A DNA stretch of 64,000 bases from an uncultured Fibrobacteraceae bacterium (GTDB taxonomy: Bacteria; Krumholzibacteriota; Krumholzibacteriia; LZORAL124-64-63): positions 65,262 to 129,261 of the forward strand of contig CAYTFE010000002.1 of NCBI GenBank assembly GCA_964437115.1, in the 5' to 3' direction. Positions within the stretch are counted from its first letter, which is position 1. Every line of letters begins with the position of its first letter. The position numbers were made by a program, and so were the translations under genes. The notes below the pieces were generated by a model that had not been told where the DNA came from, ran no database searches, and saw only the letters and a list, made by a program, of their open reading frames with translations. Below, one piece after another: positions 37,719-39,380 of the stretch.

Positions 37719-39380
37719 TTATCGGCGTGACCTGCTTCCAGACCGGCTCCCACTATCGCTAGATTTACTAGACGACTTACTGCGGGATGAGCTCCCGGAC
37801 CTACTGGAACTGTTATTGTTAATAGAGCTGGACTTACTTCTTGAAGTATTAGAACTGCTCTTCTTAACAGTGGTAGGCTTACTTCTTGTAGTATTTGACT
37901 TGCTCTTCTTAACTGTGCTATCAGAAGATTTTTTCGATTTACTGCCACTCTTGACACTAGAGCTGCGAGTAGTTGATGGCTTTGGTCTAGCTTTAGGTTT
38001 CTGTTTTGTGCTATTGCCAGTCCAAATCCTGTCACCACGAGTTCTTGGTTCTAAAGGTTTAACAACAGGTCTTTCATTGTTTCTGATCCCAGAATCAGGT
38101 CGAATGTACCGTTGTTCGTTATCACTGTTAGTACGAATCCCACCACTGTTCCCACGAATTTTGACTGCAGCTCCAGTTGTAGTTTGAATTCTGTCTGGAA
38201 CTCTGATTCCAGGCGTTGAAACTGTGCTGTTTTGACTTCGTACAATTGGTGTTTGGGCATGGACACTACGCCCGGTATTTTTGTATCCCAGGCTAGTGCC
38301 TCTGGTCTTTACAGTTTTAGATTGAGCATCCTTGCGCTCCATTTTGTCTCTCATAGTTTTAGATGGACGCCCATCTTTCATCATTTTTTTCGGTATCCTA
38401 CTCAATCTATCGGCAGCAGTTTTATTGTATCTTGTAGATTTGCTGATTGGTCGATAACGTCTGTCCGCTGCTTTATATCGGACTAAAGCTCCACCATTCC
38501 AATATGGAGAATAGTTCCATGCATAATAATCCCAGCCCCATGCATAACCAGATGATGGCCAGTAATACCAAGGATTGTACCAATAATTAACCCATGGCCT
38601 CATTGTCCAAGGATCGACATAATAATAAACTGGATAGTAATAAGCTGGGTAGAATCCATAGCTGACATACCAGTCATTATCCCAACCATAATCGTAGTGA
38701 ACATTAATATTGCATCGGTCTCTATATGGGTGGTATTGGTTCACATCATGACACTGAGTACACAAGTATCGAGGATGCTCTACTTCTCTGCCTACATAGT
38801 AACTTGTATAATTTGTTACTACATAATCCTCAGGATCTTCAAGACCAGTTACAGCAAAGTTGACCTCATTGATTGCCAGAAATGGATCGCCAGCAACATA
38901 ATAATCCCACTGGACATCCAGATTTTCATGATGAAAATCAACCTGGAGTTCTCGCAAATCAAAAGGATAAGCAGACAGGATTGCCTCAATATATTCTACA
39001 CCATTTTCGTCACCAGCCCTGATTCTGGGAGCTCCTGGTGCAGGAAGATTATAGGTATGTCCTGAATAAATAGAACCATCATCAAACCTGCTTCGAGGCC
39101 ATAGTATTGTAACCTCTCCCTCGCTATCAATCCGATAGACGACAGCATACGCATCTTGATTAGTTTCAAAATGAGCTCTTACATTTTCACCTTTGCTGTA
39201 TACATCATCCTGCTCGTCGTGCCAGATATTTATACGCATTGAAACATCTGAATAGCCACTCCATGCATTCTCAGCAAGCAGAGTAGCTGAACAAACAGCC
39301 AATAGCACTATTACCAACAGGGCCATCAACCCATAATAAGTACCGGTCTGAGTATTGCTTGTTGCGTTAACCTGTTTCAT
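37719..39380 (-). CDS. Exported protein of unknown function: N-terminal globular domain, a block extremely rich in Tyr/Trp, and a ~100-residue polybasic Ser/Lys/Arg/Thr low-complexity tail.
   Basis: 553 aa with a TM/signal segment. The N-domain carries ...AYAVVYRIDSEGEVTILWP..., which may be DUF4384-like, recalled from memory. There is a CTQCH (CxxCH) motif. The aromatic block (…YYPVYYYVDPW…NYWYNPWYYWPSSGYAWGWDYYAWNY…) has about 31 Y/W in 69 residues. The tail is …KSKKSSDSTVKKSKSNTTRSKP…SGSRSGSRSRR. Confidence 0.5.
   Translation of the reverse strand: MKQVNATSNTQTGTYYGLMALLVIVLLAVCSATLLAENAWSGYSDVSMRINIWHDEQDDVYSKGENVRAHFETNQDAYAVVYRIDSEGEVTILWPRSRFDDGSIYSGHTYNLPAPGAPRIRAGDENGVEYIEAILSAYPFDLRELQVDFHHENLDVQWDYYVAGDPFLAINEVNFAVTGLEDPEDYVVTNYTSYYVGREVEHPRYLCTQCHDVNQYHPYRDRCNINVHYDYGWDNDWYVSYGFYPAYYYPVYYYVDPWTMRPWVNYWYNPWYYWPSSGYAWGWDYYAWNYSPYWNGGALVRYKAADRRYRPISKSTRYNKTAADRLSRIPKKMMKDGRPSKTMRDKMERKDAQSKTVKTRGTSLGYKNTGRSVHAQTPIVRSQNSTVSTPGIRVPDRIQTTTGAAVKIRGNSGGIRTNSDNEQRYIRPDSGIRNNERPVVKPLEPRTRGDRIWTGNSTKQKPKARPKPSTTRSSSVKSGSKSKKSSDSTVKKSKSNTTRSKPTTVKKSSSNTSRSKSSSINNNSSSRSGSSSRSKSSSKSSDSGSRSGSRSRR

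Follow-up and report, generated by a model that had tools for sequence, protein, structure and literature searches.

Proteins with a DUF4384 domain (PF14326) have been described in contexts where the domain serves as an extracytoplasmic module of orthocaspases and Ser/Thr kinases, and the architectures published so far differ from that of the protein considered here. We report a gene of an uncultured Fibrobacteraceae bacterium (assembly GCA_964437115.1; GTDB lineage Bacteria; Krumholzibacteriota; Krumholzibacteriia; LZORAL124-64-63) whose product joins a DUF4384 domain to a CxxCH motif, an extreme Tyr/Trp block and a polybasic tail. The gene lies at 37719..39380 on the minus strand of the window, the 64,000-nt stretch of DNA that was analysed (contig CAYTFE010000002.1, positions 65,262-129,261 of the forward strand). 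We tentatively read its product as a Sec-exported scaffold, tether or integrity factor of the cell envelope rather than an enzyme. Coordinates are window positions throughout, and residue numbers are those of the 553-aa protein.

The open reading frame (ORF), taken from the ORF list of the window, is a real gene under selection. It starts with ATG, encodes 553 aa and a stop codon, and is preceded by the Shine-Dalgarno sequence AGGAGG (39387..39392, minus strand) 6 nt before the start codon. Among 5.8 billion proteins, 210 homologues were found; of those listed, most are 550-670 aa long with a query coverage of 80-98%. An exhaustive HMMER search with residues 1-306 recovered 1043 cluster representatives with an E-value of 1e-3 or lower, and 389 with 1e-10 or lower. 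Against the relatives L005 and L006 (~93% amino acid identity, each exactly 553 aa), the ratio of nonsynonymous to synonymous substitution rates (dN/dS) was 0.08 in the globular part, 0.16-0.20 in the basic middle region and 0.15-0.21 in the Ser/Lys/Arg tail, with no indels across the whole protein.

A survey of one genome per GTDB species yielded 80 loci, all from metagenome-assembled genomes (MAGs) titled Krumholzibacteriota/-ia or bearing placeholder names such as 'uncultured Fibrobacteraceae', with two named Gemmatimonas/Gemmatimonadales; the two best loci encode proteins 93% identical to that of the window, which is accordingly part of a Krumholzibacteriota chromosome. The protein is evidently a single-locus orthologue in about 80 Krumholzibacteriota species. 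More distant relatives, with 30-40% identity over the first ~250 residues, come from sources named as Ignavibacteria, Bacteroidota and Gemmatimonadaceae MAGs. The homologues seen were all MAG or metagenome sequences, none of them from a cultured organism, and homologue records are already public as 'DUF4384 domain-containing protein'.

The N-terminus is predicted to be a Sec signal peptide, or at least an N-in signal anchor, which would place the remainder of the chain outside the cytoplasm. The signal peptide spans residues 1 to ~36 (39273..39380, minus strand), with the hydrophobic core LMALLVIVLLAV and a likely signal peptidase I site TLLA/EN, as judged from an AlphaFold helix over residues 15-36 and from the features of the orthologues. 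The term orthologues here denotes 118 aligned sequences, the same alignment depth as used for the AlphaFold model. Their n-regions carry a median net charge of +3 (at least +1 in 97%), each protein has one strongly hydrophobic 15-mer and none has a second hydrophobic segment, AxA follows the h-region in 96 of the 118, and the 60 residues after the signal region are acidic. The signal or transmembrane segment proposed in the initial annotation is borne out by these features. In place of the bacterial lipobox [LVI][ASTVI][GAS]C the protein has LAVC, with Val at -1, and the signal-peptide Cys (C30) is missing from most orthologues. A Tat signal or an Fe-S cluster was rejected, a twin-arginine-like motif being present in just one of the 118 orthologues. 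In Pfam and NCBIfam the query matched neither the C-terminal domain of the type IX secretion system (T9SS; PF18962/TIGR04183), its C-terminus being disordered and polybasic, nor any other secretion signal for crossing the outer membrane.

Residues 45-310 are modelled as one compact folded unit of ~265 aa, which consists of a macroglobulin-like DUF4384 sandwich fused to a family-specific subdomain with an invariant Tyr/Trp/Pro core. The beta-sandwich (residues 60-137; 38970..39203, minus strand) matches DUF4384 with 45.9 bits against a gathering score of 27 (E = 6e-12, profile positions 1-79 of 81), so that both the globular N-domain and the Pfam family suggested for it by the initial annotation hold. 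It is followed by a family-specific extension (residues 138-225; 38706..38969, minus strand) with the motifs PFDLR, DFHHE, VAGDPFLAxNE, HPRYLCxQCH and PYxDxC, which has invariant columns and lies outside every Pfam model, and then by the Tyr/Trp block (residues 226-294; 38499..38705, minus strand).

Tyr and Trp make up 31 of the 69 residues of this block (44.9%) and 50% of its densest 40-aa window, against a mean of 4.5% and a best 69-aa window of 20% in the other 39 ORFs of the window, which served as the composition background. The claim of an extreme Tyr/Trp content therefore stands, but the block is not a loose low-complexity stretch that merely follows the globular domain. It contains W233, W237, Y247, P250, Y254, D256, P257, W258, W267, Y268, P270, W281 and W288, all invariant in the 118 orthologues, and it lies inside the fold: AlphaFold assigned a predicted local distance difference test score (pLDDT) of 85-97 over residues ~45-310, the extension included, with the aromatic block at 82-94. 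When the region beyond the sandwich was modelled alone (residues 139-352, with a shallower alignment of 28 sequences), the mean pLDDT was 34. It does not fold alone in AlphaFold, so it appears from the models to fold only jointly with the sandwich and not to be an autonomous domain.

Structural relatives were found for the macroglobulin-like sandwich alone, at 13-14% identity, and the extension has no PDB relative by sequence or by fold. PDB profile searches with the whole family and with the extension gave nothing significant (best matches neuropilin, E = 0.058; galectin-13, E = 0.55; NapB, E = 0.72). Pfam and NCBIfam scans recognised nothing in the query besides DUF4384, and the PDB and the literature searched likewise held no description of the remainder. 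DUF4384 was also the sole significant Pfam match in ten divergent relatives, where matches to a rubredoxin-like zinc ribbon (E = 0.22) and to the alpha-2-macroglobulin (A2M) bait region (E = 0.067) were dismissed as noise.

The CTQCH motif (C207, C210 and H211; 38748..38762, minus strand) and C223 (38712..38714, minus strand), which follows 12 residues further on, are invariant in the 118 orthologues, and the only other Cys of the protein is C30 of the signal peptide. In an alignment of the first 300 residues of 314 family sequences, the complete Cys-Cys-His-Cys set was present in 293, which confirms that the CxxCH motif is real and retained by homologues. In these 293, which span ~30% identity, the distance to the His is rigid, always +1. 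Eight sequences keep CxxC with the His replaced, and C223 is gone in all of them; three retain C207 and C223 and have lost C210 and the His, and further sequences have lost all four residues. In almost every sequence without the His, two or none of the three Cys remain. Fold, aromatic block and tail are otherwise all present in the clades whose site reads CERCY, CETCY or CPDCD, without the His, or YPRYLVYNLY, without both Cys. C207, C210, H211 and C223 thus behave as one site, and the pattern suggests that a disulfide can take its place, which would fit an oxidising compartment. H202 was considered as a distal heme ligand and rejected, as 155 sequences have Tyr there and 136 have His.

Beyond the fold the chain becomes strongly basic. 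The 242 aa after RRYRP hold 60 Lys and Arg against 14 Asp and Glu, so the basic character begins well before the tail. The basic middle region (residues 295-450; 38031..38498, minus strand) contains the conserved islands RRYRP (307-311) and PGIR (390-393) and short segments that AlphaFold models confidently (~341-350 and ~371-380); almost all of the chain beyond residue ~396 has a pLDDT below 50. The tail proper (residues 451-553; 37722..38030, minus strand), which is predicted to be disordered, consists of 39% Ser, 17% Lys, 11% Arg and 10% Thr, with 28 Lys and Arg against 2 Asp and Glu, and Ser, Lys, Arg and Thr together reach 77% in the best 100-aa window, compared with at most 37% in the other 39 ORFs. 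The initial annotation had described an uninterrupted Ser/Lys/Arg/Thr tail: these residues do dominate, but Asn, Gly, Pro, Asp, Val and Ile are interspersed. The compositional bias and predicted disorder bear out its picture otherwise, and binding of polyanions by such a tail, as it proposed, is physically plausible.

In the 118 orthologues the region after the fold measures 224-339 aa and has a net charge of +16 to +63 (median +38.5). Their last segment (75-160 aa, net charge +6 to +31) is 48% Ser, Thr and Gly and 3.7% hydrophobic, and its column identity is ~0.2-0.5, compared with 0.6-0.9 across most of the fold. Homologues thus retain the charge and composition of the tail and not its sequence, a pattern that suggests selection on the former. 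Lys replaces much of the Arg in the window protein (Lys/(Lys + Arg) 0.63, family median 0.30), which may be linked to the low G + C content of the window (~0.42). Exceptions to the weak sequence conservation after the fold are the islands RRYRP and PG(L/I)R and the linear motif RPVxKPxEPRxxGxRIWxG (residues 437-455; 38016..38072, minus strand), also written RPVEPRxxGxRIWxGG. The last of these is clade-specific: its core [KR][ILV]W.[GNS] occurs in 106 of 144 sequences of the orthologue clade, in 1 of 88 distant relatives and in 2 of 70 members of a second clade described below.

Four genes in the same orientation encode, in this order, a lipoprotein, the DUF4384 protein, an M6-like metalloprotease homologue and an outer-membrane barrel of the PorV/PorQ family. 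The lipoprotein (39405..40298, minus strand) has the lipobox ISGC, an N-terminal FN3-like domain (match to 3mpc, E = 3.6e-4) and a C-terminal domain of unknown kind, and its gene ends 24 nt upstream of the DUF4384 gene. Of the 84 Krumholzibacteriota loci in which gene neighbourhoods were counted, 80 have the lipoprotein gene. A homologue with 32-35% identity (E ~1e-33 to 1e-35) stands directly upstream of the DUF4384 gene in three further clades, represented by an Ignavibacteria MAG (L086), by the related locus L091 (the protein cluster of which has a Bacteroidota-named member) and by a clade without CxxCH in which the two genes overlap by 4 nt. Since the pairing crosses four divergent clades, the lipoprotein and the DUF4384 protein form a conserved two-gene module. 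An identity of the lipoprotein as HmuY, a heme-binding lipoprotein and hence of interest beside a CxxCH, was rejected, as only 2 of 12 homologues gave such a match (E >= 0.028) and the PDB profile search found FN3-like domains only.

A sigma-54-type -24/-12 element, TGGCACaatagATGC (40335..40349, minus strand), precedes the lipoprotein gene. An equivalent element (TGGCAC-N5-xTGC, at least 8 of 10 positions) lies less than 200 nt upstream of that gene in 69 of the 70 loci used for promoter counts; the background rate of sites that agree at 9 or more of the 10 positions is 0.022 per kb. The ATG at 40379 given for the lipoprotein in the ORF list is probably wrong, because translation from the ATG at 40298, which GGAGG precedes, yields MNTKLISLK...ISGC, and this is a lipoprotein signal of standard form. 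The longer ORF (39405-40379) encloses the proximal sigma-54 element. Further upstream lies the gene of a TPR-containing sigma-54 enhancer-binding protein of 1036 aa (41047..44157, minus strand; Pfam Sigma54_activat, E = 8.6e-62), a candidate regulator of the operon whose position is kept in 74 of the 84 loci, and a response-regulator-type sigma-54 activator gene is found upstream as well. Between the two activator genes is the gene of a 101-aa acidic protein with a signal peptide (44191-44496, minus strand); ORFs of 99-107 aa, without a Pfam match, occupy the equivalent position in other loci (e.g. L001:2690-2989).

Downstream, the M6-like protein (34273..37518, minus strand; 75 of 84 loci) lacks HExxH and carries FG-GAP repeats and a weak T9SS sorting domain; its match to NF052323 (E = 1.3e-59) scores 202 bits against a cut-off of 600 bits. 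The PorV/PorQ-family barrel (33332..34276, minus strand; NF033709, 157 bits against a cut-off of 90; 63 of 84 loci) overlaps the M6-like gene by 4 nt. The pairing of these two genes (33332-37518, minus strand) recalls PorZ-PorQ and PorU-PorV and is found here outside the Bacteroidota. The M6-like gene begins ~200-270 nt past the DUF4384 gene. A sigma-54 element precedes it in only 1 of 71 such gaps, and no intrinsic terminator was found between the two genes in the window; co-transcription is possible. Practically all Krumholzibacteriota loci of sufficient length show the four genes in this order. The gene for RlmN (rlmN), a metallophosphoesterase gene and the gene of a sigma-70-family sigma factor are likewise syntenic, and gene order alone is therefore weak evidence of function.

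Taken together, we favour, with some reserve and short of even confidence, a Sec-exported envelope scaffold, tether or integrity factor. The exported protein consists of a compact modelled unit, in which the macroglobulin-like sandwich is fused to an aromatic subdomain stapled by C207, C210, H211 and C223, followed by a ~240-aa polycationic, Ser/Gly/Thr-rich disordered chain. The four-residue site would hold a cofactor, either covalent heme c or structural Zn(Cys3His). The protein would work jointly with the FN3-like lipoprotein encoded upstream, the pair being transcribed from the sigma-54 promoter under the control of the adjacent TPR enhancer-binding protein. The cationic tail would act as a flexible tether on anionic envelope material, such as lipopolysaccharide (LPS) or another anionic polysaccharide, peptidoglycan carboxylates or phospholipid head groups, and the RPVEPRxxGxRIWxGG motif may dock a clade-specific partner, most plausibly a complex of the inactive M6-like protein and the PorV/PorQ barrel. 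This motif is limited to the clade that has M6-like and PorV-like neighbours. Active M6 proteases of the InhA type cleave cationic peptides, and a pseudo-protease could keep the binding. The family is found in several envelope contexts, namely next to the PorV/PorQ barrel, next to tolQRAB-pal-cpoB in the second clade, and next to genes of extracytoplasmic function (ECF) sigma factors, anti-sigma factors and LTXXQ proteins in other clades.

Several points weigh against this proposal. All members derive from MAGs or metagenomes and none comes with an experiment. The synteny extends over the entire region, housekeeping genes (among them rlmN and that of the sigma-70-family factor) included, and may therefore reflect phylogenetic inertia in part, rather than functional linkage. 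The gap to the M6-like gene, ~357 nt by one measure and ~200-270 nt by another, makes co-transcription with it no more than possible, and the M6-like protein matches the T9SS sorting domain only weakly (E = 0.03-0.06). That protein would be located on the cell surface and the DUF4384 protein in the periplasm, so direct contact between them would need a special topology, and the ligand of the tail is guessed from charge alone.

Among the alternatives, the one that survives best, although we think it unlikely, is a redox protein of the mono-heme c-type cytochrome kind, with thioether bonds to C207 and C210, H211 as proximal and C223 as distal ligand. The Tyr/Trp lattice would then provide an electron- or hole-hopping path or a redox-sensing environment, and the cationic tail would dock on an anionic partner, polymer or mineral. 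The strict CxxCH spacing agrees with such a role, as does the predicted Sec-type export without Tat, a requirement of heme c maturation, and H211 and C223 are lost jointly in the eight sequences that keep CxxC, as two axial ligands would be expected to be. Zinc sites built on Cys are rare in the oxidising periplasm, and a His directly after a ligand Cys is atypical for structural zinc. A Krumholzibacteria MAG has been reported to encode OmcS, Cyc2, and cbb3-type and cox oxidases (PMC7914226), so cytochrome c maturation exists in the phylum.

Other evidence speaks against a cytochrome. No cytochrome family was matched at E <= 1 in Pfam or NCBIfam and no cytochrome fold was matched in the PDB, where the sole cytochrome sequence match, NapB, is at chance level. 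CTQCH is the single CxxCH among the window ORFs of at least 100 aa, and the operon has no further redox gene. The clades that lost the His or the Cys pair retain the fold, and the core function of the family is therefore not heme-dependent. The alternative retention of either C207 and C210 or C207 and C223 is most simply explained by three thiols that lie next to one another, as they would in a tetrahedral metal site. The four candidate ligands covary as one site, degenerate members keeping exactly two Cys or none. The CxxCH motif that the initial annotation called heme-c-type is thus conserved, but its pattern fits a Cys3His metal site equally well. By our estimate from the sequences, zinc or another metal and heme would each have a substantial chance below one half, with heme perhaps slightly behind, and the remainder would fall to a disulfide-only or other state. 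The boldest form of the cytochrome interpretation, which we regard as improbable, would make the His/Cys-ligated covalent heme c in its invariant Tyr/Trp lattice an undescribed extracytoplasmic redox module (conduit or envelope sensor) that is tethered by the polycationic tail to anionic surface polymers or minerals and is common to Krumholzibacteriota, Ignavibacteria, Bacteroidota and Gemmatimonadota.

There is a slim chance that the protein belongs to a secreted matrix with a cohesive, adhesive or mineral-templating function, in which the aromatic block and the tail would form intermolecular cation-pi contacts, presumably as in mussel foot proteins (Mfp) or FUS-type condensates, or the tail would template silica or another anionic mineral, presumably as in silaffins or the Ser/Arg tail of Bacillus CotB1. 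A single chain does join segments of 45% aromatic and 77% Ser/Lys/Arg/Thr content, the composition of the tail is kept where its sequence is not, and the aromatic block and the basic tail each turn up independently in divergent relatives, where Tyr and Trp make up as much as 62% of a 40-aa window. The aromatic block, however, is here a sequence-invariant and confidently folded core and not a set of exposed 'stickers', a route across the outer membrane is lacking (neither a T9SS C-terminal domain nor another secretion signal was found), and biomineralisation genes are absent nearby.

A cytoplasmic nucleic-acid-binding protein of the histone-H1 or RS type, which finds its sole support in the composition of the tail, is very improbable in view of the N-terminal Sec signal kept in the 118 orthologues, the description of DUF4384 as an extracytoplasmic module, the lipoprotein nature of the partner and the lack of any winged-helix or RRM domain in Pfam scans. 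Because the protein is exported, the resemblance to H1 and RS tails noted in the initial annotation goes no further than composition, and the tail is unlikely to bind chromosomal nucleic acid, polyanions of the envelope being the better candidates. The tail cannot be traced to a microsatellite, as its Ser residues are encoded by all six codons and no tandem repeat was found in its DNA. A chance open frame across low-complexity DNA, which the initial annotation named as the finding that would overturn it, is practically out of the question: low-complexity DNA can sustain frames, as a 167-aa antisense ORF open over the tail shows, but the 210 homologues, the columns invariant throughout the fold, the low dN/dS without indels against ~93%-identical relatives, the strong Shine-Dalgarno sequence and the mixed Ser codons in DNA free of tandem repeats all oppose it. 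The antisense ORF (37684-38187, plus strand) is Leu/Asp/Glu-rich, and no homologue search was made with it; we judge it to be the complement image of the tail codons, an artefact and not a gene.

Members of the family outside the orthologue clade show other surroundings. In the second clade (L085:8001-9803, L087:8001-9602; sources named Krumholzibacteriota) the motif reads CSKCH or CAQCH, the Tyr/Trp block lies near residue 300 with up to 60% Tyr and Trp, and the chain ends in a basic Ser/Gly tail; the gene stands divergent from tolQ-tolR-tolA-tolB-pal-cpoB and has no lipoprotein partner. Distant members (L089:3279-7227, L088:6001-10337, L087:11572-12627) adjoin genes for an ECF sigma factor, a zf-HC2 anti-sigma factor and LTXXQ/Metal_resist (Spy/CpxP-like) proteins. 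In L089 the order is sigma factor, anti-sigma factor, LTXXQ protein, lipoprotein and DUF4384 protein, which suggests an envelope-stress regulon. Ignavibacteria-type loci have DUF4783 and a very large HAMP histidine kinase next along.

The window contains further genes of interest. Four large ORFs (780, 841, 916 and 992 aa) lie at 2559-13416 on the minus strand, two of which end in T9SS type-A or PorZ-like C-terminal domains, while the other two have no Pfam or NCBIfam match; the C-terminal domains indicate that the organism probably uses a T9SS. Cell-wall hydrolases, namely an amidase with AMIN, Amidase_3 and LysM domains and an M23 peptidase, are encoded a few kb from the DUF4384 gene (28707-31019, minus strand) and are consistent with an envelope-related neighbourhood. 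A gene at 47592-50804 (minus strand) encodes a 1070-aa protein of IcmF-like architecture, in which a B12-binding domain is fused to a MeaB-like GTPase and a methylmalonyl-CoA-mutase domain.

A second sigma-54-type element, TGGCACattacCTGC (40825-40839, minus strand), lies between the genes of the enhancer-binding protein and the lipoprotein, and a distal element of this kind is present in 45 of the 70 Krumholzibacteriota loci. The ~280 nt after it have a minimum free energy of -92.5 kcal/mol (z = -4.5 against shuffled sequences) and end in a long hairpin and a U-run; with the element they make up the locus of a candidate structured RNA (40530-40839, minus strand). The conserved blocks GCAGGGA, ACCGGC, GAGGTGGGGTC, AAAGAGCC and GGCGAGAYTC are kept across species whose proteins share 40-50% identity, and the region has no conserved reading frame across these species. 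RNAalifold predicted 33 pairs from 17 sequences, 24 of them with compensatory changes, and Rfam gave no match. The region looks like an undescribed sigma-54-dependent RNA, a candidate that merits a study of its own.

The DUF4384 gene occupies the same sigma-54-linked position in nearly every Krumholzibacteriota locus examined. Given this near-universal locus and the relatives among the Gemmatimonadota and further lineages of the Fibrobacterota-Chlorobiota-Bacteroidota (FCB) group, the protein is probably a core component of the envelope in bacteria about which little is known. With the FN3-like lipoprotein, DUF4384 gains its first conserved partner. The lack of a PDB relative and a Tyr/Trp density ~10 times the window background make the protein an attractive target for structure determination and for studies of aromatic-core folding. 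Should the site bind heme, it would define a new class of small periplasmic cytochrome, and if the ligand of the tail is LPS or another anionic polymer, the protein would represent a new type of envelope tether linked to PorV-family/T9SS-like surface machinery outside the Bacteroidota. As no host is in culture, the protein is a well-defined target and not a functional discovery.

Comparison with known systems places the protein as follows. The likeness to PorU-PorV, PorZ-PorQ and the NCBIfam family 'T9SS-dependent M6-like inactivated metalloprotease' concerns the two downstream genes and not the DUF4384 protein, which has no C-terminal domain of the T9SS kind and is matched by none of the models for T9SS components. 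The last ~100 residues resemble in composition what we take to be typical of Bacillus CotB, silaffin, RS-domain and histone H1 tails, but those act in other compartments, no homology exists, and the tail sequence is not conserved even among the orthologues. With the linkers of RcsF, TolA and TonB and with Skp, the protein shares export, a long flexible basic segment and an envelope gene context (tol-pal, ECF sigma factor, PorV-family barrel); again there is no homology, the segment is C-terminal and Ser/Lys/Arg/Gly-rich instead of Pro/Ala/Lys/Glu-rich, and the analogy is our inference. Mono-heme c-type cytochromes have in common with it a CxxCH motif in a predicted Sec-exported protein, here with a conserved Cys 12 residues downstream, and the magnetochrome domain and the His/Cys-ligated hemes of TsdA, SoxA and DsrJ presumably offer comparisons; sequence and fold similarity is lacking, and the motif is lost in some clades of the family.

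The macroglobulin (MG) domains of A2M and of complement C3, C4 and C5 are like the single sandwich in fold only, at 13-14% identity, and the protein has neither the thioester (CGEQ) domain nor the bait region or multi-MG array of those proteins; Pfam scans of the query gave no A2M family either. Literature on DUF4384, PorV2, M6/T9SS and on Krumholzibacteriota with T9SS yielded nothing on this architecture. The claim of the initial annotation that the domain combination is not a described family holds for the architecture and the added module, which are absent from Pfam, NCBIfam, the PDB and the literature searched, and does not hold for DUF4384, which is known, nor for the sequences, which are already deposited. 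DUF4384 proteins remain the closest described relatives: residues 60-137 exceed the gathering score, the domain is an extracytoplasmic beta-sandwich, and the homologues are so named. The domain accounts for 78 of 553 residues, however, and no profile library contains the CxxCH/aromatic extension of ~170 aa or the polybasic tail. What appears to be new is thus not the family but the conserved module of ~170 aa that is built onto DUF4384.

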